Assembly (NCBI GenBank): GCA_030390025.1
Contig: CM059431.1
Coordinates: 149,608,001-149,672,000 of the forward strand
DNA: 64,000 nt
DNA from: Squalus acanthias
Taxonomy: Eukaryota
Direction of reading: 5' to 3'
A program made the position numbers and the translations under genes. Under the pieces are notes generated by a model. The model made no database searches. It was not told where the DNA came from and saw only the letters and a program-made list of their open reading frames with translations. Each line of letters begins with the position of its first letter. Positions within the stretch are counted from its first letter, which is position 1. Shown here in pieces: positions 1 to 40,889 of this stretch.

Positions 1-2523
1 GAGGGGTGTATGGTATATCAGAGTGTTACAGTGAGTGGTGTCGGGTATATAAGAGTGTTACATTGAGGGGTGTGGTGAATATCAGAGTGTTAGAGTGAAG
101 GGTGTGGGGTATATCAGAGTGTTACAGTGAGGGGTGTGGGGTATATTAGAGTGTTATAGTGAGGGGTGTGGGATATATCAGTGTGTTACAGTGAGTGGTG
201 TGTTCTATATCAGAGTGTTACAGTGAGTTTTGTGGTCTTTATCAGAGTGTAACAGTGAGTTGAGCGGTCTATATCAGAGTGTTACAGTGACGGGTGTGGA
301 GCAAATCAGAGAATGTTACAGTGAGTGGTGTGGGGTATATCAGTGTTACAGTGAGTGGTGTGGTGTATATCAGCGTGTTACAGGGAGTGGTGAGGTGTAT
401 ATCAGCGTGTTACAGTGAGGGGTGTGGTGCATATCAGAATGTTACTGTGAGTGGTTGGGGTATATCAGAATGTTACAGTGAGGGGTGTGGGGTATATCAG
501 AGTGTTAGAGTGAGGGGGTGTGTTCTATATCAGAGTGTTGCAGTGAGTGGCGTGGTGTATATCAGAGTGTTACAGTGAGTGGTGTGGTGTATATCAGAGT
601 GTTACAGTTAGTGTTGTGGTGTATATCAGAGTGTTGCAGTGAGGGGTGTAGGCTATATCATAGGGTTACATTGAGTGTTGGGGTATATATAAGTGTTACA
701 GTGAGGGTGTGGTGTATATCAGTGTGTTACAGTGAGTGATGTTGGGTATATTAGTGTGATAAAGTGAGGGGTGTGGGGTCTATCATTATGTAACAGTGAG
801 GGGTGTGCGGTATAAGAGATTGTTACAGTGAGGGGTGTGAGTATATCAGAGTGTTATAATTAGCGGTGTGGGGGATATCAAACTGTTACCATGAGGAGTA
901 AGTGGTACATCAGAGAGTGTTCCTGTGAGAGGAGTGGGATATATCAGAGTGCTGCTGGGATGTGGGGTATATCAGTGTGTTACAGTGAGGGCTGTGGTGT
1001 CTATCAGAGGTTGTTACAGTGAGCGGTGCGAGGTATATCAGTATTACAGTGAGTGGTGAGGGGAGTAACAGCCCAGAGTGTGGCATATATCAGAGTTTTA
1101 CTGTGAGTGGTGTGGGGTATATCAGTGTGTCACAGTTAGGGTTCAGGATATGTCAGAGTGATTTAGTAAGTGTTGTGTGGTATATCAGTTATAACAGTTG
1201 GGGTGTGGGGTATATCAGAGTGTTAAATTGAGGGGTGTAGGGTATATCAGACTGTTACAGCGTGTGATGAGGTCTATATAAGAGTTTTACGGGGTGTGGG
1301 ATTAATCAGGGGATTGCACTGAAAGGTTTGGTGCATATCAAAGTGTTACATTTAGCGGTGTGTGGTACATCAGCGTTTTATAGTGAAGAGTGTGTGGAAT
1401 AGCAGTGTGTTATAGTGAGAGGTGCGGGGTATATCAGAGTGTAACAGTGAGGGGAGTGGGGTAAATCAGAGTATTACATTGAGGTGTGTGGGGTAAATCA
1501 GAATGTTACTAGTGAGGTGTGTGGGAAATATCAGTGTTTTACAATGAGTGGTGTGCGGTATATCACTGTGTTATAGTGAGGGTTCTGCGGGACATCAGAG
1601 TGTTACAGTATTGGGTGAGTCGTGTATCAGAGTGTTGCTGTGAGAGGTGTGGGATATGTAAGAGTGCTTCGGGAGTGTGGTGTATATCACAGTGTTACAG
1701 TTATGGATGTGTGGCATATCAGATTGTTACAGTGAGAGGTGTAGCGTATATCAGTGTGTTACAGTGAGGTGTGTGGTTTATATCAGCGTCTGACATTGTG
1801 GAGTATTTCATAGTGTTACAGTGAGCGGTGTGGGGGATATCAGAGTGTTACCATGAGGGGTGTTGGGTATATCAGAGAGCGTTACATTGAGTGGTGTGGG
1901 ATATATCAGACGGTTACTGGGTTGTGGGGTACATCAGATTGTTACAGTGAGCGGTGTGGTGTATATCAGAGTGTTACAGTGAAGACTGTGGGGAATAGCA
2001 ATGAGTTGCAATGAGCGCTGCGGGGTATCTCAGAGTTTTACACTGAGGAGTGTGGGGTATTATGAGTTTTACAGTGTGGGGTGTGCAGAATATCAGGGTG
2101 TTTTTCAGTGTGGGTGTGGAGTATATTACAATGTGTTACAGTGAGTGGTGCGAGGTATATCAGTGTTACAGAGAGTGGAGTGGGATATATCAGAGTGCGC
2201 CAGTGAGAGGTGTGGGGTATAACGGAGTGTTACAGTGAGGTGTGTGGTGTAAATCTGAGTGTAACAGTGAGAGTTGTGCGGGAAATCAGAGTGTTGCAGT
2301 GTCGGGTGGGTAGTGTATCAGAGTGTTGCAGTGAGAGATGTGGGATATGTAAGAGTGCTTCGGGTTTTAGTGTATATCAGAGTGTTACACTCTATAGTGT
2401 GAGGAATAGCAATGTTTAATAATGAGCGCTGTGGGGTATATCAGAGTTTTAAAGTGAGGAGTGAGGGGTATTTCAGAGACTTGCAGTGTGGGGTGTGGAG
2501 AATATCAGAGTGTTTTTCAGTGA
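1..2523. repeat. Satellite A: tandem array of a 32-bp GT-rich unit (TATATCAGAGTGTTACAGTGAGGGGTGTGGGG), running off the window start
   Basis: TATAT recurs at 14 and 46 (period 32). The unit can be followed with substitutions to ~2523. ORFs here only repeat the unit. Confidence 0.95.
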
Positions 2524-2741
2524 GTCATAGAGTCTTAGAATCATAGTGTTATACTGCACAGAAAGATTGCCTTTGGCCCATCGTGTCCGCGCCGGCCATC
2601 AAGCCCTGACTATTCTAATCCCATTTTCCAGCAGTTGGTCCGTAGCCTTGTATGCTATGGCGTTCCAAGTGCTCATCTAAATGCTTCTTGAATGTTGTGA
2701 AGGCTCCTGCATCTACCACCCTTTCAGGAAGTGAGTTCCAG
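2524..2741 (-). mobile_element. CR1 (HER1-like) LINE 3' end; first part of a 5'-truncated copy split by a nested insertion
   Basis: Reverse complement matches the 3' ends at 10835-11002 and 26630-26842 (WNSLPERVVDAGAFTTFKKHLDEHL, 3' UTR, CTATGA-type tail). Confidence 0.9.
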
Positions 2742-5700
2742 AGGAAAAGCAGTGGAAGAGCTATAGTGATAGGGGATTCAATTGTAACGCGAATAGATAG
2801 GCATTTCTGCGGCCGCAAACGAGAGTCCAGGATGGTGTGTTGCCTCCTTGGTGCAAGGGTCAAGGACGTCTCGGAGCGGCTATGGAACATTTTGTAGGGG
2901 GAGGGCGAACAGCCAGTTGTCGTGGTGCACATAGGCATCAACGATAGAGGTAGAAAACGGGATGAGGTCCTAAAAGAAGAATATAGGGAGTTCGGAGGTA
3001 AATTAAAAAAGAGGACCTGAAAGGTATGAATCTGAGGATTGCTACCAGTGCCACGTGCTAGTAAAGTAGAAATAGGAGGATATTTCAAATGAATACGTGG
3101 CTAGAGGAATGGTGCAAGGGGGAGGGATTCAAATTCCTTGGACATTGGAACCGGTTCTGGGGAAGGAGGGACCAGTACAAACGGGACGGTCTGCACCTGG
3201 GCAGGGCCGGGACCGATGTCCTAGGGGGAGTGTTTGCTAGTGCTGTTGGGAGGGTTTAAACTAAAGTGGCAGAGGGTTGGGAACCTGAGCAGGGAGAAAA
3301 GAGGAAGGGAAACAAGGATAAAAGCTAAAGACAGGTAGGAGAAAAACAAAAGTCGAAGGCAAAGAACTCAACGGTTCATATCAAACATGGTCACAGTAAA
3401 TAATAATGCATATAGGACTGAGAGCGTTAAAAAACAAGCCTGAAGGCTTTGTGTCTTAATGCAAGGAGCATTCGGAACAAGGTGGATGAATTAGCTGTGC
3501 AAATAGCGGTAAATTAACACTATTTGATTGGGATTACAGAAACATTGCTCAAGGATGCCAAGGCTGGGAACTCAACATCCAGGGTCATTCAATATTTAGG
3601 AAAGATAGGCATAACAGAAAGGGAGGTGGGGTAGTATTGCTGGTTAAAGATGGGATTAACAAAATTGAAAGGAAGGATATTAGCTCTGATGATGCAGAAT
3701 CTGTATGGGTAGAACTGAGAAATAACAAGGGGCAGAAAACGTTAGTGGGTTGGTATATAGACCTCCAAACAGTAATACGGAGGTTGGGGACGGCATTAAA
3801 AGGGAAATTAGAGAAACATGTAGTAAGGGCACAGCAGTCATCATGGGTGACTTTAATTTACATATAGATTGGGATAACCAAATTAGTAAAAATTCTGTGG
3901 AGGAGGAATTCCTAGAATGTTTACGAGATGGTTTTCTGGAACAATATGTCGAGGAACCAACCAGAGATCAGGCCATCTTAGACAGGGTATTATGTAACGA
4001 GAAAGGATTAATTAGCAATCATGTCGTACGAGGCCCCTTGGGTCAGAGTGATCATAATATGATAGAATTCTGCATTAGGTTGGAGAGTGTAGTAGTTGAA
4101 TCAGAGACTAGGGTCCTGAATTTAAATAAAGGAAACTAAGATGGTATGAGGCGCGAATTGGGTAGTATTGATTGGGGAATGTCACTCAAGGGGTTGACGG
4201 TGGATAGGCAATGGCCAACATTCAAAAACTGCATGGATGAACTACAGAATTTGTTCATCCCAGTGTGGCATAAGAATAAAACAAAAAGGGTGACTCAACC
4301 GTGGCTAACAAGGCAAATTAGGGATAGCATAAGATCCAAGGAGAGGGCATATAAATTGGCCAGAAAAAGCAGTAGCCCTGAGGACTGGGAGCAGTTTAGG
4401 ATTCAACAAAGGAGGACAAAGGGATTAATTAAGAAGGGTAAAATAGAATATGAAAGTAAGCTTGCTGGGAACATAAAAAAACTGACTGTAAGAGCTTTTA
4501 TAGATATGTGAAGAGAAAAAGATTAGTGAAATCAAGTGTAGCTCCCTTGCAGTCAGAAGCGTGGGAAGTTATAATGGGGAACAAAGAAATGACAGACCAA
4601 TTAAATGCATATTTTGGTTCTGTCTTCACAAAGGAGGACAAAAATAACCTCCCAGAGATGTTGGAGAACATATGGTCTGATCAAAGGGAGGAACTGAAAT
4701 AAATCAATATTTGCAGGGAAATGGTGTTAGGGAAATTGACAGGATTGAAGGCCGATAAATCACCAGGGCCTGATTATCTACATCCTAGGGTACTTAAGGA
4801 AGTGGCACTAGAAATAGTAGATGCATTGCTGATCATCTTCCAACATTCGATGGAATCTGCAACTGTACCCATGGATTGGAGGGTAGCTAATGTTGACCCA
4901 CTATTCAAAAAGGGTGGTAGAGAGAAAGCGAGGAATTACAGACCGGTAAGCCTGACATCAGTATTGGGGAAAATGCTAGAGTGCATTATAAAGGATGTAA
5001 TAGCTGAGCACTTGAAAAACAGTGACAGGATCGGACAAAGTCAACATGGATTTACAAAAGGTAAATCGTGCTTGACTAATCTACTGGAATTTTTTGAGGA
5101 TGTATCTGGGAAAATAGATAAGGGAGAACCAGTAGATCTGGTGTATTTAGACTTTCAAAAGGCTTTCGATAAGGTCCCGCATAAGTGATTAGCGTGTAAA
5201 GTTAAGGCACATGGGATTGGGGCAAGATAATGAATTGGACAGAGAACTGGTTGGCGGACTGAAAGCAGAGAATAGGAATTATTGGGTATTTTTCTGAGTG
5301 GCATTCAGTGACTAGTGGGGTACCGCAGGGCCCCAGATATTCACAATATACGTTAATGATCTAGATAACGGAACTAAATATAATATCTCCAAGTTTGCAG
5401 CTGACACAAAGCTGGGTGCGAGTGTGTGCTGCGAGGAAGATACCGAGAAACTCCAGGATGATTTGGACAGGTTGGGTGAGTGGGCAGAAGCGTGGCAGAG
5501 TTTGGATAAGTTCGAGGTTATCCACTTTGGTGTCAAAAATAGAAAGGTAGACTATTATCTGAATGGCAATAGATTGGGAGAAGGGGAAGTGCAACGAGAC
5601 CTGGGTGTCCTTGTGCACCAGTCGCTGAAAGTAAGCATGCAGGTGCAACAGGCGGTGAAGAAGGCAAATGGTATGTTGGCCTTCATAGCGAAAGGGTTTG

Positions 5701-6313
5701 AGTATAGGAACAGGGATGTCCTGCTGCAGTTGTACAGGGCCTTGGTGAGGCACAGCTTGAGTGCTGTCTGCAGTTTTGGTCGCCTTCTCTGAGGAAGGAT
5801 GTTCTTGCCATGGAAGGAGTTCAGCAAAGATTCACCAGGCTGATACCTGGGATGGCAGGAATGACATATGATGAAAGATTGGGTCGATTGGGCTTATACT
5901 CGCTGGAGTATAGAAGAATGAGAGGGGATCTCATCGAAACATATAAAATTCTGACAGGTCTGTACAAACTAGATGCAAGAAGAATGTTCCCGGTGGTCGG
6001 ATAGTCCAGAAACAGTGGTCATAATCTAAGGATAACGGGTAAGCCATTTCGGACAGAAATGAGGAAGAATTTCTTCACCCAGAGTGTGGTGAACCTGTGG
6101 AATTCATTCCCACAGAATGTAGTTGAGGCCAAGTCATTAAATATATTCAAGAATGAGTTAGATATATTTCTTAAAGCTCAAGGTATCAAGGGATATTGGG
6201 AGAAGGCAGGTACAGGAGACTGAGTTTGGATGATCAGCCATGATCTCATCGAATGGCGGAGCAGGCTCGAGGGGCCGAATGGCCTACTCCTGCTCCGATC
6301 ATCTATGTTTCTA
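2742..6313 (+). mobile_element. CR1 LINE, 5'-truncated inside ORF1 (SGNH esterase), with a decayed ORF2 (APE endonuclease and RT)
   Basis: Motifs IVIGDSIV and DGLHL (esterase), YRPPNS/GDFN/SDHN (endonuclease), NYRPVSLTS, QHGF and LDFQKAFDKVPH (RT). Many stops and frameshifts. 3' tail ATCTATGTTTCTA at 6301-6313. Confidence 0.95.
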
Positions 6314-6475
6314 TTCCAACCACCCACTGGGTGAAAATGTTTTTTCTCAAATCCCCTCTAAACCTCCTGCCCATTACCTTGAACCTATCTCCCCTTGTTA
6401 TTGATCCCTCTACTAAGGGGAAAAGTTCCTTTCCATCTACACTATCCATGCCCCAAATACTTTTGCACAACTCTA
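6314..6475 (-). mobile_element. CR1 (HER1-like) fragment continuing 2524-2741
   Basis: GAGTTCCAGA (ends 2741) joined to TTCCAACCAC (starts 6314) restores the reverse complement of the continuous sequence near 26610-26650. Confidence 0.88.
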
Positions 6476-7105
6476 GAGTTCAGTTTGTCACGGAGTGCAG
6501 ATGGGAACAGAGTGTTAAGCTGCGAGTTTGGTGAGTGAGGGAGTGATTCTTAAACGTTAATCTCTTTTTTTATAAAATCTAGTTGTGTGTGATTGCAATT
6601 AGCGTTTAACTTAAATTTAAATTTACTGTTTCAAGTTTTAAGTTTCTTCCAGTCTTGGGCAGGGCGAAGCAAGCTCTGTGCTGGAGAGCAGGTGAGAGTA
6701 ATTAATTAATTAACTGGTCTAATCTTGTTCTGTAACTGCCTGACAGCTCACTTATTTCAATCTCAGCAATATAAACAAGGGAGGATAGAGTGCAGTTCGT
6801 CACGGTGTACAGATCAGAACAGGGTATAGAGCTGCGAGTTTGGTGAGTGAGGGACTTCGGGGAGGGAGGTGATCCTATCTTTGTCTGTCTTTGTCAGCTT
6901 CCAGGAGAGCAGGAGCTAAAAAGCAGCACAAGAGGGGACAGAGAACCAGCGGTGAGTATTTCTACAGTATTTCTACATCCCAGTCGTTAAAGTAAAAGTA
7001 AGGTATCTAGTTTAGAGTAAGTAGTGTTTAAAGCGACCTAAGGTCCTATGTTATTTAATATTCTTTAATTTAAAGGAACTAAACGGAGTAAATTCAGCGG
7101 TGCAC

Positions 7106-24112: not shown

Positions 24113-25418
24113 AGAGTCTTTTAATCAGGGATCCCTTTTAAAGTGAATCTTCCTATTCGGCAAAAATTTTTAAGAGAGAGTCTCACCAACAGGGACACCT
24201 TTTAAAGAGGGAATGTCTCCATCAGGGACATATTTTAAAGAGGGTGTCTCCCTATCAGGAACGATTTTAAATAGAGAGTCTCACCATCAGGGACCCCTTT
24301 TAAAGAGGGTGCCTCACCATCAGGGATCGCTTTTGAGGAGAGAGTCTCGCCATCAGGGACACCTTTTAAAGAGAGAGTCACTCCATCTGGTACCCCTATT
24401 AAAGAGAGAGTCTCACCATCAGGGACCCCTTTTAAAGAGAGAGTCTCACCATCAGGGATACCTTTTAAATAGAGATTCTCTCCATCAGGGATCACTTTTA
24501 AAGAGAGAATCGCACCATCAAGGATCCCTTTTAAGTAGGGAGTCTCACCATCAGGCATCTGTTTTAAAGAGGGCGTCTCAATATCAGGGATCACTATTAA
24601 AGAGAGAGTCTCACCATCAGGGACCCCTTTTAAAGAGGGAGTCTCACCATTAAGGAAACCCCTTTTAAAGAGAGAGTCTCACCATCAGGGACCCTTTTTA
24701 AAGAGGGAGTCTAACCTTCAGGACCCCTTTTAAAGAGGGCGTCTCAACATCAGGGACCACATTTAAAGATGGACTCTCACCATTAGGGACCCCTTTTAAA
24801 GAGGGAGTCTCACCATCAGGGACCTCTTTTAAAGAGGGAGTCCCCCATCAGGGATCCCGTTTAAGGATAGTCTCACCATCAGGGACCCCGTTTAAAGAGG
24901 GAATCTCCCAATTCGGGACCCATTTTAAAGAGGGAGACTCACCATCAGGGACCCTTTCAAAGAGGGTGTCTTTCTATCAGGAAGCCCTTTTAAAGATGGA
25001 GTCACACCCTCAAGGGACCCATTTTAAATTCAGAGTCTTTCTATTAAGAACACCGTTGAAAGAGTGAGCCTTTCTGTCAGGGACGTCTTTTAAAGAGAAT
25101 CTTCCGATTAGGGACACCTTTTAAAGAGAGAGTCTCACCATCAAGAACCCCTTTTAAAGAGGTAGTGTCTCCATCAGGGACACTTTTAAAAAGAGGGTGT
25201 TTCCCCAGCAGGGACCCCTTTTAAAGAGGGAGTCTCACCATCATGGAACATTTTTAAAGAGGAGTCTCACGATCTGGGCCCCTTTTGAAGAGGGAGTATC
25301 CCGATCAGGAAGCCCTTTTAAATAGAGAATCTTTCCACCAAGGACCCCTTTTAACGAGGGAGTCTCACCATTCGGGATCCTGTTTAAAGATTGAGTTTCA
25401 GCATCAGGGACCGCTTTT

Positions 25419-26842
25419 TCCATTATTCAAGAAGGGCAATAGTGATAAACCAGGGAATTACAGGCCACTGAGCCTAACATCAGTGATAGGGAAATTATTG
25501 GATACAATTCTGAGGGACAGAATCAGTCTCCACTTGGAGAGGCAAGAATTAATCAAGGATAGTCAGCATGGCTTTGTCAAGGGGAGAGCATGTCTAACCA
25601 ATTTGATTGAATTTTTCGAGGGGCTGACTAGGTTTGTGGATGAGGATAGTGCAGTTGATGTAGTCTACATGGTCTTCAGTAAGGCTTTTGACAAAGTCTC
25701 GCATGGGAGACTAGTCAAGAAGGTAAGAGGCCATGGGGTCCAGGGCAATTTGGCACATTGGATTTAAAATTTGTTTAGTGGCAGGAGGCAGAGGGTGATG
25801 ATCAAACGTTATTTTTGTGACTGGAAGCCTGTGTCCAGTGGTGTACCACAGGCATCGGTGCTGGGTCCCTTGCTGTTTGTAGTGTACATTAATGATTTAG
25901 ATATGAATGTAGGAGGTATGATCAGTACGTTCGCAGATGACACGAAAATTGTTGGAGTGGTAAATAGCGAGGATGGAAGCCTCAGGCTACATAACAATAT
26001 AGAGAGGTTGGTCAGATGGGCAGAACAGTGGCAATTGGAATATAACCCTGAAAAGAGTGAGGTGATGCATTTTGGGAGGACTAACAAGGCAAGGGAATAA
26101 ACTATGAATGTTAGGACCCTAGGAAGGACAGAGGATCAGAAGGGACCTTGGTGTGCATGTACATAGATCCCTGAAGGCAGCAGGACAGGTAGATAAGGTG
26201 GTTAAGAAACCATTTGGGATACGTGCCTTCATTAGCCGAGGCATAGAATATAAGAACAGGGAGGTTATGATGGAGCTGTACATAACGCAAGTTAGGCCAC
26301 AGCTGGAATACTGTGTGCAGTTCTGGTCGCCACACTATAGGAGGGATGTGATTGCATTAGAGAGGATGCAGAGGAGATTCACCAGGATGTTACCTGGGCC
26401 GGAAAATGAAGAGAGACTGGAGAGGCTGTGGTTGTTTTCCTTAGAGCAGAGATGGCTGCGGGTGGACCTGATGAGGTGTACAAAATTATGAGGGGCATAG
26501 ATAGGGTAGTTAGAAATGAACGTTTCCCCTTAGTAGAGGGGTCAATAACCAGGGGGCATAGTTTCAAGGTAAGGGGCAGGAGGTTTAGAATGGATTTGAG
26601 GAAAATAATTTCACCCAGAGAGTGGTTGGAATCTTGAACTTACTGCCTGAAAGTTTGGTAGAGGCAGGAATACTCACAACATTCAAGAAGCATTTAGATG
26701 AACACTTGAAACGCCACAGCTTACAAGGCTGCGGAACAAATGCTGGAAAATGGGATTAGAGAAAATATTCCCTGACGGCCGGCGCAGACACGATGGGCCG
26801 AAGGGCCTCTTTCTGTGCTGTATAACTCTCTGAATCTATGAC
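25419..26842 (+). mobile_element. CR1 (HER1-like) LINE, 5'-truncated RT with complete 3' end
   Basis: Runs from PLFKKGNSDKPGNYRPLSLTS through FADDTK to LEYCVQFWSPH. Collinear with 9630-11002. Tail CTCTGAATCTATGA. Confidence 0.93.
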
Positions 26843-28291
26843 AATATTTTAACGAGATAGTCTCTCCCTCAGGGACTCCTTTTAAAGAGAGTGTCTCGCC
26901 ATCAGAGACCCTTTTAAAGAGTTTGTCTCAACATCAGGGATACCTTTAAAAGAAAGAGTCTCACAATCAGGGACCCCTTTTAAAGAAAGAATTTCACCAT
27001 CAAGTATCCCATTTAAACAGGGAGTCTCACCATCAGGGGCCCGTTTTAATGAAGGTCTCACCATCAGGGACAAATTTTAAAGAGGGAGTCATCCCATCAG
27101 GGAAACCTTTTAAAGAAAGAGTGTCGCCATCATGGACCCCTTTTAAAGAGGGAGTCTCACTATCAGGAACCCATTTTAAAGAGGCTGTTTCAGCAACAGG
27201 GACCACATTTAAAGAAAGAGTCTCACCATCAAGGGCCCCTTTTAATGAGGGAGTATACCCATCAGGGTCCCCTTTTAAAGAGATAGTCTCACCATCATGG
27301 ACCCCTATTAAAGATAGAGTCTCACCATCAGGGACCCCTTTTAAAGAGGGAATCTTCCCATCAGGGGCCCCCATTAAAGAGGCAGTCTCACTATCAGGGA
27401 CAACTTTTAAAGAGAGAGTCTTTCTATCAGGGACCCCTTTTAAGGAGGGACTCTCACCCTCGGGGACTCTTCTTAAAGAGAGAGTCTTTCTATCAGGGAC
27501 CCCTTTTTAAGAGAGAGTCTCCCCATTAAGGAACCCTTTTAAAGAGGCTCACCATCTTGGACCACTTTAAAGAGGGTGTTTCAGCATCAGGGACTCCTAT
27601 TAAGGATGGAGTCTCAACATCAGGGACCCATTTAAAGAGACAGTCTCAACATCAGGGACCACTTTTAAAGAGAGTCTCAACATTAGGGACCCATTTTAAA
27701 GAGGGAGTGTTACCATCAGGGACAACCTTTAAAGACCGTTTTCTATCAGGGACCCTTTTTAAAGAGGGAGTCACACGGTCAGGGACTCATTTTAAAGAGA
27801 TAGTCTTTCTATCAGGGACCCCATTTAATTGGAGGGTCGCTCCACCAGGGACCCATTTTAAAGAGGGAGTCTCACCATCAGGGACCCTTTTTTAAGAGAG
27901 AGTTTCACCATCACGGATCACTTTTAAACAGGAAGACTCACCGTCAGAGACCCTTTTAAAGAGGGAGTCGTTATAACAGGGACCCCTTTTAAAGAGGGTG
28001 TCTCCCTATCAGGTACCACTTTTAAAGAGGAAGTCTCACCATCAGGGTCTCCTTTTAAAGAGGGAGTCTCATCATGAGTGGCCCTTTTAAAGAGGGAGTC
28101 TCATCATGAGTGGCCCTTTTTAAAGAGTGTGTCTCACCATCAGGGAGCCCTTTTAAAGGTAGTCTTACCATCAGTGTCCCCTTTTAAAGGGGGAGTCTTA
28201 AGATAAGGACCCCTTTTGAAGAGAGAGTCTCACCATCAGGGATCCCTTTAAAAGAGGAAGTCTCACCATCAAGGTTCCCTTTTAAAGAGGG

Positions 28292-28382
28292 ACAAATGTG
28301 AGAAGTCGCAAAACACCAGGTTATAGTCCAACAGCTTTATTTGAAAGCACAAGCTTTCGGAGCGCTGCTCCTTCGTCAGATT
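28292..28382 (-). mobile_element. Solo PLE pseudo-LTR fragment with hammerhead-like core, inserted in satellite B
   Basis: Matches 15634-15714. Minus strand reads CTGACGA-AGGAGCAGCGCTCC-GAAAGCTT at 28351-28379. Confidence 0.85.
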
Positions 28383-30856
28383 GAGTCTCACCATCAGGCT
28401 CCCATTTTAAAGAGAGAGCCTTTCTCTCAGGGCCTCCTTTTGAAGAGGGCGTCTTTCTAGAGAGAGAGTCTCCCCATTAGGGACACATATTAAAGAGGCA
28501 ATCTCTCCATAAGAGAAACCTTTTAAAGAGAGAGTCCAACCATCCGGGTCCCCTTTTAAAGAAGGAGTCTCACCCTCAAGGACCTACTTACAAGGGGGAG
28601 TCATCATTAGAGACCCCTTCTAAAGAGAGAATCTTACTATCAGGGACCCCTTTTAAAATTGGAGTCTCACCCTCGGGGATTATTTTTAAAGAGAGAGTCT
28701 TTCTATCTGGGATCACTTTTATAGATAGAGTCTCCGCATTAGGGACACCTTTTAAAGAGGCTCACCATCAGAGACCACATTTAAAAAGGGTGGTTAAGTA
28801 TCAGAGACCCCTTTTAAAGAGAGAGTCTCACCCTCAGGGACCCCTTTTAAAGAAGGAGACTCACCGCCAGAGACCAATTTAAAGAGGGAGTCTTTCTATC
28901 AGGGACACCTTTTAAAGAGGGAGTCTCAACATCAGGTGCCCCTTTTGAAGAGGGAGTCTCAGCATCAGGGACCCATTTTAAAGAGAGAATCTCTCCATCA
29001 GGGACCCCTTTTAAAGAAATAGTCTCACCATCAGAGACCCTTTCAAAGATAGTCTCACGATCAGGGACCCCTTTTAAAGAGGGTGTTTCTCCATCAGGGA
29101 TCTCTTTTAAAGAGGGAGTCACACGGTCAGGGACTCATTTTAAAGAGATAGTCTTTCTATCAGGGACCCCATTTAATTGGAGGGTCGCTCCACCAGGGAC
29201 CCCTTTTAAAGAGGGAGTCTCACCATCAGGGACCCTTTTTTAAGAGAGAGTCTCACCCTCAGGGACCCCTTTTAAAGAAGGAGACTCACCGCCAGAGACC
29301 AATTTAAAGAGGGAGTCTTTCTATCAGGGACACCTTTTAAAGAGGGAGTCTCAACATCAGGTGCCCCTTTTGAAGAGGGAGTCTCAGCATCAGGGACCCA
29401 TTTTAAAGAGAGAATCTCTCCATCAGGGACCCCTTTTAAAGAAATAGTCTCACCATCAGAGACCCTTTCAAAGATAGTCTCACGATCAGGGACCCCTTTT
29501 AAAGAGGGTGTTTCTCCATCAGGGATCTCTTTTAAAGAGGGAGTCTCACCATCAGGGACCTCTTTTAAAGAGGGAGTCTCACCATCAGGGACCCCTTTTA
29601 AAGAGAGAGTCTTTCTATCAAGGACCCCTTTTAAAGAGGACGTCTTTCTATCAGGGACCCCATAAAGAGAGAGTCACCCCATTAGGGACACTTTTAAAGA
29701 GGCAGACTCACCATCAGGGACCACTTTTGAAGTGGATGTTTCAGCATCAGGTATTCCGATTAAAGAGGGAATCTCACCATCAGTGACCACATTTAAACAG
29801 GGAGTCACACCATCAGGGAGCCCTTTCAAAGAGAGAATTTCACCATCAGGGTCCATTTTAAAGTGGGAGTCTTTCTATGAGCGAGCCCTTTTCAAGTGGG
29901 TATTAGCATCAGGGACCCCTTTTAAAGAGGGAGTGTCTTCTTCAGTGGCTGCTTGTAAAGATGGAGTCTCAACAACAGGGCCCACTTTTTAAGAGGGAGT
30001 CTCCCCAACAGGACCACTTTTAAAGAGATTCTCACCATCAGGCGCCCCTTTTAAAGCGGGAGTCTCACCAAGGGGTGCCTTTTAAGGAGGACGTCTCACC
30101 ATCAGGGAGCCCTTTTAAACGAGAGAGTCTCCATATTAGTCACCCCTTTTAAAGAGTAAGTCTCCCCATTAGAGACATCTTTTAAAGAGAGAATCTCACC
30201 ATTAGGGAGCACATTTAAAGAGGGTGTATCCCATTCAGGGACCACTATTAATGACAGAGTCTCTCTACCAGGGACCCATTTTAAAGAGGGAGTCTCACCA
30301 ACAGGTACCCTTATCAAGACCGTGTCTCAGTATCAGGTACCCATTTAAAGAGGCAATCGTTCTATCAGGGACCCCTTTTAAAGAGGGTGTCTCATCATCA
30401 GGGATCCCTTTTAAAGAGTGAGTCTCAGCCTCGGGGACGCATTTTAAAGAGAAAGTCTATCTATCAGGGACGCCTTTTAAAGAGGGTGTCTTTCTTTTAG
30501 CGAATCATTTTAAGGAGAGATTGCCCCGTATAGGGACACCTTTTAAAGAGGCACTCTCACCATCAGGGAAAACTTTTGAAGCGGGTGTTTCAGCATCAGG
30601 GACTCCTATTTATGAGGGTGTCTCAACATCAGGGAGCCCTTTTAAAGAAAGAGTCTCTCCATCACGGACCACTTTTAAAGAGGATGTGTATCCACAGGGA
30701 CCCCTTTTAAAGAGGGAGTCATTCTAACAGGGAGTCCGTTTAAAGAGGGAGTCTCACCATCAGAGGCCCAATTTAAAATGAGAGTCGCACCATCAGCGAC
30801 CCCTTTTAATGTGGGTGTATCCCCTTCAGGGACCCATTTTAAGGATAGAGTCTCTC

Positions 30857-31399
30857 TGAATCGATAATTACTAGTCCTAGCCCCTTTAGGCCTACCCCGG
30901 ATCAGGCGTTTTCCCCAGACGTTCAATTTCAACTAAAATTTGAGGTAGCCGAATCCTAAAGATGCTTAATTGGGTCTTAAGGACCAAACTGACTATCCCT
31001 AAAGGAAAGGAACAACCTAAAGATGTTACCGTCCGCCAGATAGCACTTTTAATAAGTTTAGCTAGACTTTAACATTCCGGATCTTATGAGGGTCCGGGAA
31101 GCTCCTTCAGAATTCTACAGCTCCTCAGCAGAAAGTGTACAGAGATTCAGTTTGCGAATTTGATACAGAAATAGTATTTGAGACAATTCTAAAAATATAT
31201 AAATTTATTAAAGAACCGACATGTAATTTACAGTTGGTGATTCAATCGCAACATTAACAGTTGCAAAAACAAAAATCTTACAATTCTATTATCAGAGATC
31301 CTTATTCTCAAATCTTAACTTCACTAGTTTTACAGTTCTTAGTTTATTCCAGGATATTCACCAAACTCAAATACAAGTACCTTGATCCCCAAGATACAA
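30857..31399 (-). repeat. Partial 3' LTR (R/U5 portion only)
   Basis: Aligns to 36901-37580 apart from the 37013-37135 insertion. Similarity ends abruptly at CCCCAAGATACAA. Confidence 0.9.
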
Positions 31400-34300
31400 G
31401 CATCGCGTGGAGGAGTCCACGACACCATCTGACTGACTGTCGTCAGTAGTTCGATCGCATCCATTTCCTTTGTCGTGCTCCACGCTGGGTCTTGAAAGAC
31501 AGCGTATTATTCCTCCATTTCGGTATCCCGCAGTACATCTTTTGAGATTATCTATGGAGACAGTTTTAAGAATATGCTTGCCATTCGGCTCATCAATATG
31601 TTTTTTAACTGTTCTTTCGTTAATAACAGCATGCATTTGAGCAGGTTTTTACAACTTCGGTCTTAAACCAGGTTTTTGCTCGAACCTCTTTTCCTGTACC
31701 CATTCTCTTACTAGGGGTTGCCATGCTTTGTTTGTCAATTTTTTCTGCCTATTTGCCTCCCTTATCCTCTGATCAATTTGATGAATCTGCTCTGTTTCTT
31801 CTTTTTTTCAAATCTATCTGTCGCTGTCGGGTCAAGGACTCAGAGTGCAGAGGCAATAAAAGAAGTATGGGTATGCATCTCAACTCCATACATCAGATAA
31901 TATAGAGTTTTAGGGGACACTGTCCCTGATGCAGATGCGGGCAGATTATTAAGTGATATCTGCACCTCCGGAATGAAGGTGGTCCAATTATTTCCCTGAT
32001 TCTCAACAGTTTGACCAATAGCTTTTTTACTTCCTGGATTTTAAGTTCCAGCAGCCCCGCAGATTGCGGATGACATGGCGTGCTGTGCTGTCACCCAATC
32101 CCCCTTCGTTCGCAATAGTCTTTGAAGACCTTGGAAACAAAGGCTCCGCCTTGATCGGAGTGTAAGATTTTGGCTGCACCAGCTACAGTATTTATGTCAG
32201 TAATAGCATTGGCGAGTGCGTTTTCCGAAACAGTTTTTGTGGAGATCAGTCAGGAGAAGGAACTGCATCCATCTACACAATCGAGAACATGTCTATATCC
32301 CAAAGACGGGGCAAGTGGTCCAATAAAGTTAATAAATAATTTTCCGATTAGCTCATCAGCTTTCACAGGAGCCAATGGTGTTGGCTTAATTAGTGATGAG
32401 TTATTGGTTTAATAGCATGGCTCACAATTTGCCACGTATGTTTTACAAGCCTTAAGAATGCCTGGCCACCAATATAAGGGGGTCAATTTGCAGAATGTTG
32501 TTCTGGCACCACAATGTGCTTGACCTATGCGCTCGTGAGCTTCTTTTACAAGTTGTTCTCGTTTATGTATCGGGGGTACTTATCTGGTGCCCTTGGGCAA
32601 CTTAACTAGCACAATACCCATAGGGGTTTCCGAGTCAAATCCTGGTCGATTCTCTTTTGTTGGGTCTAACAGCGGAATCAGTTCCTCATCCTGATGAGCT
32701 GCCCGTTCTGCCCTTGTGATTATACTTATATTGGCAGCCCCCTCTCCAGGGGGTTTCATGCAGACCGAACATTTTGCTTGTTCCTCTGCAAGACTGTTTC
32801 CTTTTGAGTGTACTGCCCCAGTAGTATGCCCGTTTTCATGAATCACCTGACAATTCTGTTTCTCCATTCTCGAATGAAGAATGTCTTCCCACAATGACTT
32901 ATGTTTTATGGGTTAACCCTTATGATTGGTAAAATTTGTTTGTTCGCATAAAACTAGATATTGGTTCTATCCTCTTTTACTGTAGTCACTATCCTTACGG
33001 ATTAGTATGGGTTGAATAGGGTCTGCCTATTCTAAAGCATCCCTTAATGCTGCGGCTTCAGCATATTGCGCTGTCTTATGGCCAAGTGGTATGGACAGTA
33101 ATTCTTCTGGAGAATAAGAATAGGAATCTCGAAAAGTCCCTACTAATATCCCCATCCCAGCTGAGGATAGTTGGGTTGTCCTTTTTGAAACGTCATTGAA
33201 GATCCATCACAGTAAATGATTGACGGTACTCTGTAAGCGGTCTCATAGGTATTTGTCTGATTCCCACATTCGTATCATCATCCTTCATGATGAGGAGATG
33301 CTCTCAGTCCATTTCCGGGGAGAGGAATTTAAAAATGAGTGTAGGATCATTCTTGAACGATGCCCATTTATTATATCGGATGTGTGTGGCTCTTTTTTCA
33401 TCAGAGGCCATCCTCACTACTGATCTTAAATCGGGAATCTCAGTATGGATTGTAATGAGCTATTTCCCTTGAAGGGTCCGTGTCTTGATGAGGCATTGGA
33501 CTGGCATAGTCATGACACTTTCTTTTTTAATGTGCCTCCTTTCGAAATTGGAATATATAAGAATGGAATTGAAGGGCACTATGATCTTTTCATTATAGAA
33601 AACTGCATCTGCCACATTAGGTGATGACCTGAGATGAATATTGAGGGGAAATGGTAAGTCCCTCTTTTCCAGGCCTATGGCTTTCTATACCTCTCGGCAT
33701 AATTGTTGCAATTTTGAGTAATCGTCTGGTGAAAATATGAATGGTCCTTTTGCTGCTTCGCCCACTCTAGCATACAGGGGTGTTGAGAGCTCGGCAAAGA
33801 TTGGCGTAAATGGATCAAGCAAAATTCAGGAGTCCTAAATTTGCTTGAGATTTTTTAGCATTTTAGGATATTGAATGGTGGCTATTGTTCTTTATAGGAT
33901 TGAGTTAACCCTCTAACGTTTCCAGTTATTCGCAGGCCCAGAAAATCTACCTCTTCCCTGACTAGTTGACTCTTTTGTATGTTGATTAAGTACCCAGCAG
34001 TTGTAAGTCTGGATAAAACACTATCAATGGCGTTTAAGTGTTCTTGGAGATTTCCATGTGACAGGTATATATCGTCCACATAAGAATTGACGTTAGGTCG
34101 GTCTTTTAAAAGGTCAATGATGTGGGCTGAATACAGAACGGGACTGTTTTGAAAAACCTGGGGCAATCTGGTCCAGCAATACAGATAAACATCGTGTCAA
34201 TTCATCGCTGTTTTTGACCAATCAGGTTTTTAGTTTGGATGTGGCCAGAAGCCGTTTGCTAGATAAATACAACATTTATATTTTTCCCTCATGATTCCAG

Positions 34301-34990
34301 AGAGAAGGTCTGTGGAATTTTGCTGTTGTGCAGTATGTGGGGCCGTTATCTTATTTAAGGCTGAATAATTGACCACTAATCTCCACATCCCATCTGGTTT
34401 AGCAACACCAAACAATGGTGAATTAGTTCAAGATGCCATTTTGATTAAGACATCTTGTTCTGTTAGTTCTTTGAGTGTTGTTAGGAGATCTATGTTTCCT
34501 TTGTGGTCCTGAATAGGCCACTGTATTTTAAGTTTGTGCCATCCAGCATAAAGTGGGTGGGGTTTGATGTCTATTTTTCCACATTGATTTGGATGATTTG
34601 TAGATAAGGGTAGTATCTATTAAAGAGTTGCTCGAGGAGATCTTTGCATCCCCCCTCTAGGTAACTTTGCTCAAGCTGTGTCCGAAAATATTTTTCCTTG
34701 TCATCCTTGTCTGTGAATGCTTCGACAGGTCTGGTTGAGATTTTAAGGTAATGTTTCATGTCTGGTTGTCCTATTATGAGGGAATAGGTCAATTGTAGTA
34801 CCAGTCCTACATCTAGAGTCATCATGATTACATATATGATAATAGCTATTTTGTAAACATTAATTTGTCTCGAGTGAATCCCCCTAATGGTCTTTTACAA
34901 AAATGGGCTCCCCAAATCTGTCCACCAAGTTTTTATAATTGCAGGATCTATTACAGTGTAATCAGCTCTCGTATCAAACAGGGCCTTCAC
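31400..34990 (-). pseudogene. pol: Foamy-like pro-pol (protease, RT, RNase H, integrase) with many stops and frameshifts
   Basis: Protease ALFDTRAD. RT KPDGMWRLVVNY..LNK, KYKCCIYLANGFWPHP, PQVFQNSP, SYVDDIYLSH. RNase H IYCDGS, HKTAQYAE, HENGH, GNSLAE. Integrase H..H..YWWPG..C..C, HSDQGGAF, HPQSAG, C-terminal INERTV...TVSIDNLK. Confidence 0.92.
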
Positions 34991-36655
34991 TTATTTGTTT
35001 GTGGGCAATGTTGCCAGGGCATAGGTGAATTCAAGAGGCCCTGGCTGGATGCCAGGCCTTAAATCCTGGGATTGTTCATCCTCAGGTTCCTGAGTTTCAT
35101 TTGATGCTTTGTCTTTTATTATTTTGACTGATTTTTGTTCCTCCCTCTTGGGGGTTTCATGTTTTTCAGATCCCTTACGTGGTTTGTCGAACCGTTTATT
35201 ATCTTGACGATCCTCCTGTTGGGGTGAACGTTGGTTCTGCCAGGAAGCCTTTTGATCTCCATTTCGGTTTCCCCGGTATCCTCCCATGGCTCTCTGGCAG
35301 TTTTGACCAGTGTAAATGCTGTCCCCATTGGTAGTCCACTTTCTTTCGCTTTCCTTTCGAGCTCTAGCCCCTCCTCTATCACATCTTTCTGGGGAGAATT
35401 TTTTCATGTAGAGCGGGCGAGTTGGGGGTGTAAACCTTCTGGAATACGCTCTTGGGGGTCCCGAGCCACGAGTTTGTGTCTGGGCGGGGTGTACTTGAGA
35501 CTTGTGTCTGTACAGTCCTTGCTTCTGTGTACCAAAGGTACCATCTCCGGTGTTTTTATGCCTAATTTCTGATCTCATTATAGGTTTAGTTTGGGGTAGT
35601 ACTAAGAGGTCATGATTTAATTGCATAATGCGATTGACATTATCCCATCTTTGTTGGTTATCTCGATAATCGTTTAGAGCACCCTCACAGGCATGTTTGA
35701 GGGCTGTATTTTGGTATTGATTGGCTAGGCAACCTTGGACAATATCACAGTTATCCTGTGTAAGTACTTTGCCTAATCTGTAGGCAGCTACCAGCCCTTT
35801 AGTTGTGGCTGTATTAGTGAGTATTTCCTTGATGGATACCTTTACATGCCCTCCCTGAGTTGCCGTGATAACATAGGCGTATATTTGAACCCAGTTGTTA
35901 CACTTGTTTAATGGGTGAATTAAGTCTGAACTCAGTATCATTTGCATTAGTTGCCTCAGGTGTTGGGCATTCCAATCTTGGCAACAGGTTTCCAATTTAT
36001 CAAGTTTAGTTAGAATCCAGCAGATTTTTTCCCGGCTGGTGTTTCCCGGTCTACCACACATTGTGTAGATAGAGCTCAGGTTTACTTGACCTAGGGGTGC
36101 AATGCGTGGTTGCTGGGGTTGGCTTACTGGACCAGTAATCATTATACCTACAGCATTTAGATAAGATTGAGCTAGTTCCTGTCGGCATTGGTTATAATGG
36201 ATTCTATGCTGTCTATAATTTTCTCGAAGATTCTGGTAATTTATTTCATCATGAGCTTGCCAACTTAATCGGAATCCATGGCCTCGTGGACCATAGGCTG
36301 CACCGGGTCCTACTGTTCGGCCATGGTTGCCAACACCTTTTTATGCACCATTCATTAGGCCTCCCAATTGTGCGGGTGTGCACATTATCATTAAGGAATT
36401 TAGTAGATTTGGAGTAGATGTTTGATTATCCCACCGGATATTCTGTATCCTCTGGTTCTGGGGATCAACATCAAACGTGCCATGAGTTTTAACGGCTCCG
36501 TCGGCATCAAAGCGTTCTATTTGAAAAATTATCACTTGGCTTTGTGGAGGTACAGAGATAGGATTATTTCCCCGAATAAGGCAATCGTTTGAATGTCATA
36601 ATAAAAAGACTTGCTCCATTCGGAGAGGGTTTGCCATTTCGTCAGGATCTAACAT
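34991..36655 (-). pseudogene. gag: Foamy-like gag; one frame from ATG 36655/36637 with two internal stops; 36142-34991 is open (383 aa)
   Basis: Capsid-like segments IYTMCGRPGNTSREKICWI and TKGLVAAYRLGKVLTQDNCDIVQG resemble spumavirus Gag as I recall it. The C-terminal region is Gly/Arg-rich and basic with no CCHC knuckle. Lies between the PBS and the protease. Confidence 0.85.
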
Positions 36656-36880
36656 CGGTTAAGGTTTAACTTGAAATTTATAAGAAATTTCTCGACCTCA
36701 ATGGTATATTGAGCGAGTTCTGATTTAAGTTCCACAAGGCCTGATCAGGTAATTGTCATCTCTAGAGACTTAATTCTGGGTCTTAGTACCACTGTCAGTA
36801 AAACACTCCTTCTATACTTAACAATCTACAAAATGGATATAGATTTAAATATAAGTATAGGCTCTGTATCAACTCGTTAA

Positions 36881-36898
36881 CACACAGGTTGGGCGCCA
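36881..36898 (-). promoter_or_regulatory. Primer binding site, tRNA-Lys1,2 type
   Basis: Minus strand TGGCGCCCAACCTGTGTG versus canonical TGGCGCCCAACGTGGGGC (first 11 nt identical), 2 nt after the LTR end at 36901. Confidence 0.85.
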
Positions 36899-36900
36899 AC

Positions 36901-38321
36901 CGAAGGGATAATTACTAATCCTAGCCCCTTTAGGGCTACACCGGAGAAGGCGTATTCCCCAGATGTTCGCTTTCAACTAAAGTTTGAGGTAACCGAATCC
37001 TTTAGACCCTTACGATAGCAAAATACTGCAGATGCTGGAAATCCGAAAGGTCATCGACCTGAAACGTCAACTCTCTTTCTCTCTCCACGGATGCTGCCTG
37101 GCCTGCTGAGTTTTTCCAGCGTTTTCTGTTGTTATTCCTTTAGACCCTTATTGGGTCTAAAGGTCCAGAGTATCTGTCCCTAAAGGAAAGAAAAAACCTG
37201 AAGATGTTACCGTCCTCTGAATAGCACTTTTAATAAGTTTAATTAGACTGTAACGTTCCGGGTATTATGAGGTTCCGGAAAACTCCCTCAGAATTCTGCA
37301 ACTCCTCACCAAAGAGTGCACAGAGATTGAGTTTGCGAGTGTGATACAGAAGTACTATTTGAGACAATTCTAAAAATATATAGATTTATTAAAGAACCGA
37401 TATGTAATTTACAGTTGATTATTCAATCGCAGCATTAACAGTTCCAAAAACAGAAATCTTACAATTCTATTATCAGAGATCCTTATTCTCAAATCTGAAA
37501 TTCGCTAGTTTTAGAGCTCTGAGTTTATTCCAGTGTATTCACCAATATCAAATACAGGTACCTTTATCCCCGAGATACAAAGAGATGTAGACTTACAGAG
37601 ACTGCCTCTGAAGCCGAGGTTTGCCTAGCCCCTTTACAGCGAATCTATCATCCCATTTGAAAGTCCAATATTTATAACCATTTTCAGTGGTAATTCCTTT
37701 GAAGTTTTCTGCTGATATAAGCTAATTATCTCTAGTCATTTTCCTGTTGACCCGTGCTATTCTTACAGTCAGTTCTACTGGTAGCAAGCAGACTCGTGTC
37801 TCTCCTTTAGGTGTTCGAAGCTTATCATAAAAACGATGTGACCAGCAGGTGCATCTATTTGATGACATTCTTACCAAGGTCTTATATGCAATTCTTAAGT
37901 CACCTCAGCTGGTTGCCACATAGAATCGTGTCTCCTAGGTGTTGATGCCTCCCTCACCTGATCCCATTCCCACGAAGTAATATGTTTCTTAATTTTCTGC
38001 GATTCTTTTGACGTCATTTTTACGAAAGCATATGTGTCTTCTTCTTTTATGTGTATCATTCCAAAGTGTTATTTAAGACACCTTAACAGGGTATACCAAT
38101 GTGTTCTTTCCAAGGCTTCAGACTTCAGGAACCTTTAACCTTCTGTTTCAACAGGGCTATTGATTCAGTGTCAACAACTTATCTTATCTCAATCGCCTGT
38201 ATGGTGAACAGCTTTTCCACTGTCAGTTTTTTTAGGTTTCCATGGACAGTTTGTCATGTTACAAAAACAAGAATATTTCAAAGAATGGTGTATTTTTCTG
38301 ATTATGGCTTATTCCTTCACA
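36901..38321 (-). repeat. 5' LTR (~1.28 kb without the nested insertion); candidate TATAAA 37671-37676, splice donor GTAAGT 37591-37596, AATAAA 37524-37529 and 37385-37390
   Basis: Bounded by the PBS and the TSD. Imperfect terminal inverted repeat TGTGAAGGAATAA...TTATCCCTTCG. Motifs read on the minus strand. Confidence 0.85.
37013..37135. mobile_element. 123-bp PLE-type pseudo-LTR-derived insertion in the 5' LTR
   Basis: 15-bp TSD TCCTTTAGACCCTTA (36998-37012, 37136-37150). Absent from the 3' LTR. Contains AGGTC-ATC-GACCT-GAAAC (half hammerhead-like) and resembles 41301-41420. Confidence 0.8.
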
Positions 38322-40192
38322 TCTCCACGAGGGACCCCTTTTAAAGAGGGAGTCTCACCATCAGCGGTCCCTTTTACAGAGTGAGTCTCATTTTTCAGAG
38401 ATCCCTTTTAAAGAGAGAGTCTCACACTCAGGGACCCGTTTTAAAGAGGGAGTCTCACCATTAGGAACACTTTTAAAGAGGGTGTTTCAGCATCAGGAAC
38501 CCCTTTTAAAGAGGGTGTTTCAGCATCAGGGGGCATTTTTAAAGCCTGTGTCTCGCCATCAGGCTTTCATTTTAAAGATAAAGTCTATCTATCAACGACC
38601 ACTTTTAAAGAGAGAGTGTCACCATCAGGGAGACCTTTTAAAGAGAGAGTCTCAACATCAGGGACCCCTCTTAAAGAAAGAGTCTCAGCATAAGGGACCC
38701 CTTTTAATGAAAGTGTCTCATCATCAGGGAACTCTTTTAAAGAGAGAGTCTCACCATCAGGGAACTCTTTTAAAGAGAGAGTCTCACCATCAGGGAACTC
38801 TTTTAAAGAGAGAGTCTCACCATCAGGGAACTCTTTTAAAGAGAGAGTTTCACCATCAGGGAACCCTTTTAAAGAGGGCGTTTAAGCATCAGGGACCCCG
38901 TTTAAGGAGAGAATCTCACCATCAATGGACCCTATTAAAAATGCAGTCTCACCCTCAGGGTCTCATGTTAAAGAGACAGTTTTTCTATCAGTGACCCCTT
39001 TCAAAGAAAGAGTTCGCAATTAGGGACCCTTTTAAAGAGGGTGCTTCAGCATCTGGGACTCCTAATAAATGGGGAGTCTCACCATCAAGGAACCCTTTTT
39101 CAGGAGGGTTACTCACCATCAGGGACCTCATTTAAACAAGGAGTCTCAACATCACGGACCCCTTTTAAAGCGGGTGTCTCATCAACAGGGAGCACTATTA
39201 AAGAGGGAATCTCATCCTCGGTAACACATTTTTAAGCGAGTTTCTTTCTATCAAGGACCCCTTTTAAAGAGGATGTATTTCTATTAGGGACCCCCTTTAA
39301 AGATAATCTTTATATTAAGCACACCATTTAAAGAAAGATTCTCAACATCAGGGACCCCTTTTAAAGAGGGAGTGTCTCCAGCAGGGAGGCATTTTAAAGA
39401 GGGTGTTTCACCATCAGGGACTACTTTTGAAGAGGGAGTCTCAACATCAGGGACCAGTTTTAAAGAGGGTGAATCAGAATCAAGGACCCTTTTTAAAGAG
39501 AGAATCTCACCATCAGGGGCCCCTTTTAATGAGAGGGTCACTCCACCAGGGATAACTTTTAAAGAGGGTGTCTTTCTTTCCGGGACCCCTTTTAAATAGA
39601 ATCTTCCAACCAGGGACATATTTTAAAGAGAGAGTCTCCCCATTAGGGACCCCTTTTAAAGAGGCAGTCTCATCATCAGGGACTCCTTTTAAAGAGGGTG
39701 TCTCAACATCAGGGAGAACTATTAAAGATCTTGTTTCCTCATCAGTGACCTCTTTTAAAGAGGGAGTCTCAGCATCAGGGACCCCTTTTGAAAAGGGTGT
39801 TTCAGCATCAGGGACTCCTATTAAATGGGGAGTCTCACCATCAGGGCCCCACTTTAAGGAGAATGACTCACCATCAGGGAGCCCTGTTAATCAGGGAGTC
39901 TCCTCATCAGGGACGCCATTTAAAGGGGTAGTCTCACCATCTGGTACCCATTTAAAGAGGAAGTGTCACCATCAGGGGCCACTTTTAAAGAGGGAGTCTC
40001 AACATTAGGGACCCCCTTTAAGAGCGTGTTTCAGCATCAGGGACTCCTATTAATGAGTGTGTCTCACCATCATGGATACCTTTTGAACAGAGAATCTCGC
40101 CATCAGGGACCCCCTTTAAAGAGGGAGTCCCACGATCAGGGACCCCTTTTAAATAGGCAGTCTAACCACCAGGGACCAATTTTAATGAGAGA

Positions 40193-40889
40193 GGGCTGGA
40201 TTTTGATACTGGGGCGGTTTGGGTTCGAGTCATCAGCATTTCGTGTTATCCAGCCGACTGCAATTGGATGTGGGAGATTGATGTAATTTTCACCTAATTG
40301 GGCAATTGAGTTCCAGCATGCGGCAACCCATGAACCAATTAGTGTTTTCAGTCTGAAAGTCGCCCCTGATGATGTCATCATTGCAGGTCAGAGACTGCCT
40401 GGTCTCAGAGATTGCCTGGCATTTGCTGTGAGAGGACATGGATGCAAAATGAGCAGCATCTCAGAGAAAGAGACAGAGAGACAGAGATTTTTCAGCAGCA
40501 TCAGAAGCGACTTTCAGACCTAATAATACTACCTTCATCACATCTCCGTTGTATTAGTGGACCTGCAGCGGATAGTCAGCTATCCACTTGTGCTCCCGCC
40601 AGGTTTCACTGGTGTGTTTCACATCAGGCGTCCTTCGCGTTGGAAAAGGGTTAAACTAGCTAAAGCGTTTCAAAATGGCATTACAGAGCGAATTTAGGGC
40701 TTGTTAAGGGCTTTAATGGCCTCTCCCGCCTCTTGGAGGCGGGAGGGAGTCGGGAACACCGCACACGATTTTATCAAAATTGCGTGGAGGCGGAATGGAG
40801 GTGGTATCAGGTCCACCCGCCAGTTTTCGCAATTTTAACCCCCTACACGCCTCCAATTCAGCATCCACGGCCCGATGAAAATCCAGCCC
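40193..40889. mobile_element. MITE (PIF/Harbinger-like), longer copy, inverted relative to 23610-24112
   Basis: Perfect 12-bp terminal inverted repeats GGGCTGGATTTT / AAAATCCAGCCC and TSD AGA (40190-40192, 40890-40892). Confidence 0.88.

Follow-up and report, generated by a model that had tools for sequence, protein, structure and literature searches.

The window analysed here is a stretch of 64,000 nucleotides from Squalus acanthias (contig CM059431.1, positions 149,608,001 to 149,672,000), and all positions below are counted from its first letter. It contains a decayed foamy-like provirus at 30857..38321 on the minus strand, with TG...CA ends and a 4-bp target-site duplication. The provirus lies within a 33-bp satellite. 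Repeat comparison showed that the flanking arrays at 26847-30854 and 38330-40193 are one and the same 33-bp satellite (~70% matches), split by the provirus. A second, different 33-bp satellite, which is GC-rich and has more than 240 copies, begins near 42650. A LINE reverse transcriptase fragment was found in two pieces at 25258-26491 on the plus strand (RVT_1, E 3e-11). We take this fragment to be CR1-like, and it presumably resembles the LINEs of cartilaginous fish.

A foamy-like provirus and its proteins

The 5' LTR of about 1.42 kb (36901..38321, minus strand) was delimited by LTR-LTR comparison. Its segments 37136-37580 and 36907-37012 align with the 3' LTR at 86%, and the identity of the LTR pair is 86.5%. 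The part of the 5' LTR at 37013-37135 has no counterpart in the 3' LTR remnant, which indicates that one LTR gained an insertion or the other lost sequence. In foamy viruses, U3 is where an accessory gene ends. In the 5' LTR, U3 (37600-38298, minus strand) contains a partly open frame, for which a Pfam search in three frames gave no match. Of the 3' LTR, a remnant of 543 bases is left (30857..31399, minus strand), and the LTR match starts directly behind the integrase. Judging from this arrangement, the window provirus is missing the first part of U3, as well as env and the accessory genes, because the 3' LTR remnant adjoins the integrase. A profile search at 31300-31800 found no env family. 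A short broken frame at 31300-31520 on the minus strand, overlapping the integrase end, has no family match and could correspond to the initial codons of the lost env gene. The primer binding site at 36881..36898 (minus strand) was recognized by sequence match as the tRNA-Lys type found in foamy viruses, and its first 11 bases are those of the foamy primer binding site in the available supplement of PMC5512871. Such a primer binding site, a long LTR and a 4-bp target duplication are foamy-type traits, and all three are present in this provirus.

The gag gene (35063..36637, minus strand) starts with the ATG at 36637 and has 525 codons; in the window copy it is interrupted by stops at 36598 and 36343. 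Read from this ATG, it contains the Gag central domain PF20672 (E 5e-11, 42.9 bits at a cut-off of 30). The open frame 36340-34994 alone also matches this spumavirus domain (E 4e-11). Residues 296-591 of the 648 residues of prototype foamy Gag align with residues 177-460 of the window Gag (E 0.0017), and the E values for the foamy Gag chains range from 0.0017 to 0.005. The protease region (34598..35059, minus strand) lies in the gag frame, with the catalytic Asp at 34975. When the part after 35059 was compared with the A9-type protease of foamy viruses (PF03539), with X at stops, the match of this broken copy was weak (E 4.8e-4, 20.7 bits at a cut-off of 21). No match for the protease was found among solved structures. 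The window protease is broken by a TAA, by a change in the catalytic motif that is private to this copy, and by two small private indels near 34899 and 34863. These indels offset each other and account for a stop at 34895-34897.

The reverse transcriptase core with its YVDD motif (33885..34598, minus strand) was identified by a structure-sequence match. It matches the foamy PR-RT 7ksf with E 6e-56, as compared to 1e-17 for Ty3 and 3e-13 for the MLV type. Among 24 solved sequences, five foamy PR-RT chains score 184-193 bits, and the next best scores 68 bits. The identity to foamy virus RT, counted on the alignment, is ~42%. Thus, as judged by score rather than by a tree, the RT of the window element is closest to that of foamy viruses. 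An indel near 34596, which other copies do not have, shifts its frame relative to that of the protease. The strongest folding signal in gag-pol lies where the RT core ends (33847-33880, minus strand), with a perfect inverted repeat and z of about -4 to -4.8. The integrase (31430..32699, minus strand), with stops and frameshifts, contains the zinc finger PF17921 (E 4e-14), the core PF00665 (E 9e-8) and the SH3-like C-terminal domain PF18103 (E 2e-7). By these sequence matches the window element carries foamy-type proteins. Orthoretroviral Gag and RT are absent, both proteins being of the foamy type.

Protein searches for relatives of Gag and of the junction returned 0 of 2,490 candidates, 0, and 0 of 5. 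In the RT search, 18 proteins with 24-31% identity and retrotransposon-type domain sets were found, and none was a foamy Pol. The blank searches carry no information on novelty, because the searched libraries seem to lack the foamy-like group. Viral and metagenome scans gave no locus, and the protein atlas gave sub-0.9 leads only.

The gag-protease junction in the window and in other copies

In the window copy, the minus-strand open frame 36340-34994 of 449 codons ends with EFTYALATLPTNK, followed by a TAA at 34993-34991, and downstream of it the same frame resumes with VKALFDTRADYTVI. From these letters, a sequence-only reading had placed gag and protease in the same frame and taken this TAA as the stop of the junction. 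That reading did not mention that the frame has a further stop at 34897-34895; we do not consider this one meaningful, since it arises from the local indels near 34899 and 34863. The shared frame in a single decayed copy could be due to chance, because the five domain frames of the provirus that were counted contain 11 stops in 1,240 codons and the LTRs are 86.5% alike. Other copies differ from the window copy at 79-92 of 1,201 positions per run. Based on these differences and on the LTR identity, the probability of change per base would be roughly 7%.

Other copies were looked for in contigs of public sequencing runs. Twelve runs, none of them from RNA, shared a small part of the element's words; two of them are fish-gut metagenomes, which provides no evidence of a host. 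Four runs (X1, X2, X6 and X7, from three organisms and four studies) were aligned on 34500-35700, giving 536 contig pieces, with run X1 read to about 55%. The results rest on the 40 of 98 difference rows and the 32 of 540 pieces that were listed. The contigs are short, and no single one spans 34500-35700.

It turned out that the TAA at 34991..34993 is a nonsense change private to the window copy. Position 34993 is covered by 6, 10, 7 and 1 contigs in the four runs, and all 24 differ from the window copy, with 100% of the depth. This codon was therefore rejected both as the junction stop and as a recoding site. Between 34900 and 35700, none of the four runs has an indel with a share of at least 25%. 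Three gap-free contigs, 24 (35415-35675), 29 (35096-35520) and 19 (34919-35129), tile the stretch from 35675 to 34919 and so reach from the Gag domain past the catalytic Asp. Contig 19 is gap-free across the junction and has 37 differing letters in 211, that is, it is ~82% like the window copy. Contigs 2 and 18 also span the junction, with two gaps each at positions outside the listing, and contigs 7, 22 and 30 have gaps farther upstream in gag. Thus, gag and protease share one frame across a multi-copy family. The sharing noted in the window copy was correct and is not due to chance, as other copies have it too. One contig each in X1 and X2 skips 865 bases at 34770-35636, which corresponds to a copy with an internal gag-pro deletion.

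In the gag frame, 102 of 243 codons are one step from a stop. Exactly one of them, at 35060..35062 on the minus strand, coincides with a listed difference row. In the window copy it is a sense codon. At position 35061 the letter that makes a stop, which is not amber, is found in 7, 11, 2 and 3 contigs of the four runs (23 in total), with 99, 100, 92 and 100% of the depth; at least one contig in X1 and at least one in X6 do not have the majority letter. This family stop lies 23 codons upstream of the private TAA. Among the 40 of 98 difference rows listed, this is the only one that puts a stop in frame between gag and the protease motif; within these rows, most copies carry an in-frame gag stop at 35060-35062, and the window copy has lost it. 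The earlier proposal of a Gag-Pol fusion or readthrough holds in that the frame is shared family-wide. Its site was wrong, and a fusion free of stops is unsupported, as most copies have the stop at 35060-35062.

Mammalian foamy viruses express Pol from a separate spliced mRNA with its own AUG, as the earlier reading had stated in agreement with the available text of PMC3705302 and PMC7828637. Here, no pol with its own AUG in a frame apart from gag was found: the frame is shared in all aligned runs, among the 40 of 98 difference rows listed. The window copy has no in-frame ATG between the stop site 35060-35062 and the protease Asp, 29 codons further on. The ATGs at 35100 and 35079 (35077..35100, minus strand) had been proposed as the original start of Pol. 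They exist and are out of frame, closing after 13 and 6 codons in the window copy. We rejected them as the Pol start, since no common indel joins them to the protease frame. The loss of one nucleotide after insertion, supposed to have merged the frames, finds no counterpart among indels with a share of at least 25% in any run, and at that share the contig alignment revealed no extra base after 35079 in other copies.

The stop at 35060-35062 gives a Gag of 525 codons; the Gag of the newt element NviFLERV-2 has 526 aa according to the available part of PMC5512871. Past the aligned stretch, foamy Gag continues for 57 residues and the window Gag for 65. By this alignment, the family stop would end Gag about where prototype foamy Gag ends. 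A GC-rich stem of 8 bp with a 17-nt loop is predicted at 35013..35045 on the minus strand, 14 nt after the stop site, and is a candidate stimulator of readthrough. Gag-pol contains three perfect 8-bp inverted-repeat matches, and this stem is the only GC-rich one. Of 519 windows of 60 nt in gag-pol ranked by fold stability, four of the top seven begin at 35060-35090. When compared to shuffled sequences, the stem gives a modest z of -0.9 to -2.0, and 17 of 173 grid windows attain z -1.78. Much of the predicted fold signal may reflect GC content. A pseudoknot between the stem loop and bases near 34990 was not counted, its 5-base complement being at chance level.

Probable stop-codon readthrough and its alternatives

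Since gag and protease share one frame, the family carries a stop between them and no AUG is seen, Pol was likely made by readthrough. As far as sequence can tell, the family would have produced Pol as a Gag-Pol fusion through occasional readthrough of the stop at 35060-35062, and we regard this as the probable explanation. Most ribosomes would end Gag after 525 codons at this stop, and a few would read through it into protease, RT and integrase. The GC-rich stem downstream probably aids this, if the predicted fold is correct, in the manner of gamma- and epsilon-type retroviruses. In that case, packaging of Pol would depend on Gag and not on the RNA-dependent route of mammalian foamy viruses. 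The gag-stop-protease layout is observed; the readthrough event and the role of the stem we infer from it. Readthrough of stops other than amber has been reported for aquatic retroviruses (PMC13517186, available text), and readthrough has been proposed for the class III element XtERV-S (PMC8278194, available text). An engineered foamy Gag-Pol fusion retains RT activity according to the accessible part of PMC3705302, and a paper cited there obtained infectious virus from such a fusion. The spacer speaks against readthrough: it is 14 nt here, as compared to 8 nt in MLV (PMC13517186, available text).

Pol could also have been translated from a spliced RNA in which an upstream AUG is joined to an acceptor located shortly after the stop, or from a near-cognate start. 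Splicing is the established foamy route (PMC3705302, available text), two CAG sites are present at about 35045 and 35041, and the Pol start of the newt element is marked as uncertain in the accessible part of PMC5512871. However, the pyrimidine share before these sites is 0.56 and 0.50, near the median of 0.44 for 155 YAG sites by this crude score, and each site has another AG just upstream. In addition, foamy viruses have the AUG behind the acceptor and not on the upstream exon (PMC3705302, available text). We consider this route rather unlikely. An in-frame Pol AUG directly after the gag stop, used via a spliced RNA or via stop and restart and decayed in the window copy, appears unlikely. 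A single substitution would turn the codon at 35059 (35059-35057), which precedes the Asp by 28 codons, into AUG, and the available supplement of PMC5512871 shows an overlap of gag stop and pol start in teleost foamy-like elements. The type of difference needed for this AUG was tallied once in X1, once in X2, twice in X6 and twice in X7, outside the listed rows. However, no other type of difference in the table is as rare (each run has it at 1 or 2 places in 1,201 bases), and it has some 250 possible sites. The window copy would also have to lose the stop as well as the AUG inside a stretch of four bases. As for the remaining near-AUG codons, they lie at most 14 codons ahead of the Asp or are not the same in other copies.

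The shared frame might also be a lesion of a founder copy, multiplied with the help of another virus or together with the satellite, while pol lay outside the gag frame in the infectious virus. The window copy does sit inside a satellite array, and short contigs cannot reveal how the copies arose. However, the breaks in the protease region of the window copy are missing from most other copies, which suggests an intact source; the ~82%-alike contig crosses the junction without a gap; and the junction layout is present in three organisms. This makes a founder lesion distinctly improbable. The versions proposed from the window copy alone, namely that the TAA at 34991-34993 was read through, that the Gag-Pol frame had no stop, or that a base was lost after 35079, had in their favour the open frame 36340-34994 and the two ATGs. 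They are very improbable, since this TAA is missing from all 24 contigs that cover it, the stop at 35060-35062 is present in most copies, and 34900-35700 has no common indel.

Comparison with known gag-pol junctions

The window element is like prototype and other tetrapod foamy viruses in its Gag central domain, RT, SH3-type integrase end, primer binding site and long LTR. It differs from them in the expression of Pol: tetrapod foamy viruses use a spliced RNA with its own AUG (PMC3705302, PMC7828637, available text), whereas in the window family pol lies in the gag frame behind a stop. By arithmetic on the coordinates printed in the available parts of the sources, the stork (PMC6955096), tuatara (PMC6669660) and newt (PMC5512871) elements have gag and pol in different frames. 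The junction of the window family has the layout of the readthrough type and lies in a foamy-type genome, which lacks one defining foamy trait. It is possible, and we propose it tentatively, that a true foamy lineage made Pol by readthrough; the spliced, Gag-independent Pol would then have come later, and readthrough would be ancestral and common to the gamma, epsilon and class III groups. If so, the separate spliced Pol, a hallmark of Spumaretrovirinae, is not common to the whole clade. Mapping junction types on a Pol tree makes the question of whether it is ancestral or derived testable. With this family, the list of viral readthrough sites would also gain a foamy-like member. The 2026 review of such sites (PMC13517186) lists none in its available text, where 'foamy' and 'spuma' occur 0 times.

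Layouts of this kind are known outside the foamy viruses. XtERV-S of Xenopus (class III) has one frame with one stop upstream of the protease motif (PMC8278194, available text). Likewise, snakehead retrovirus, SSSV, ZFERV and gamma- and epsilonretroviruses have gag and pro-pol in frame with one stop upstream of the protease (PMC13517186, available text). However, none of these are foamy viruses, and XtERV-S is 'not particularly FV-like' according to its authors (PMC8278194, available text). MLV has an amber stop, an 8-nt spacer and a proven pseudoknot (PMC13517186, available text), whereas the window family has a non-amber stop and a predicted stem only. The accessible portions of PMC5210030, PMC3386198, PMC8227577, PMC12690878 and PMC7947760, and of the preprints 10.1101/2020.12.18.423569 and 10.1101/2024.07.05.601823, contain nothing on a foamy-like gag-pol stop junction. 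A search by title and start of abstract, with most subscription papers outside its scope, found no report of readthrough in a foamy-like virus.

The teleost elements AciFLERV and AliFLERV also have a foamy-like Pol, the same type of primer binding site and a 4-bp target duplication. They differ in that the gag stop and the pol AUG overlap in different frames and the genomes exceed 17 kb, and their non-Pol proteins have no strong likeness to known viral proteins (PMC5512871, available text). The catshark element ERV-Spuma.0-Sca resembles the window element in its annotation, which assigns gag (1538-3796) and pol (3920-6865) alike to frame 3. It differs in its 866-nt LTR and 9.2 kb length, groups with the teleost elements, and no Gag domain was found in it (PMC10699275, available text). 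Among the published elements compared, this unrelated one comes nearest to the junction described here (PMC10699275, available text). The junction motif of the window element was not found in the accessible supplement of PMC10699275, a result weakened by its clipped lines. The available text of this paper offers no comment on in-frame gag-pol or on Pol expression in the catshark and lamprey elements. Two lamprey elements labelled spuma have a single ORF that covers gag and pol (PMC10699275, available text). In the printed sequence of ERV-Spuma.0-Sca, whose lines are clipped so that frames are not countable, a stop is followed nearby by a protease motif, seemingly before the annotated pol start. 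This element possibly contains a second, unremarked junction of the readthrough type.
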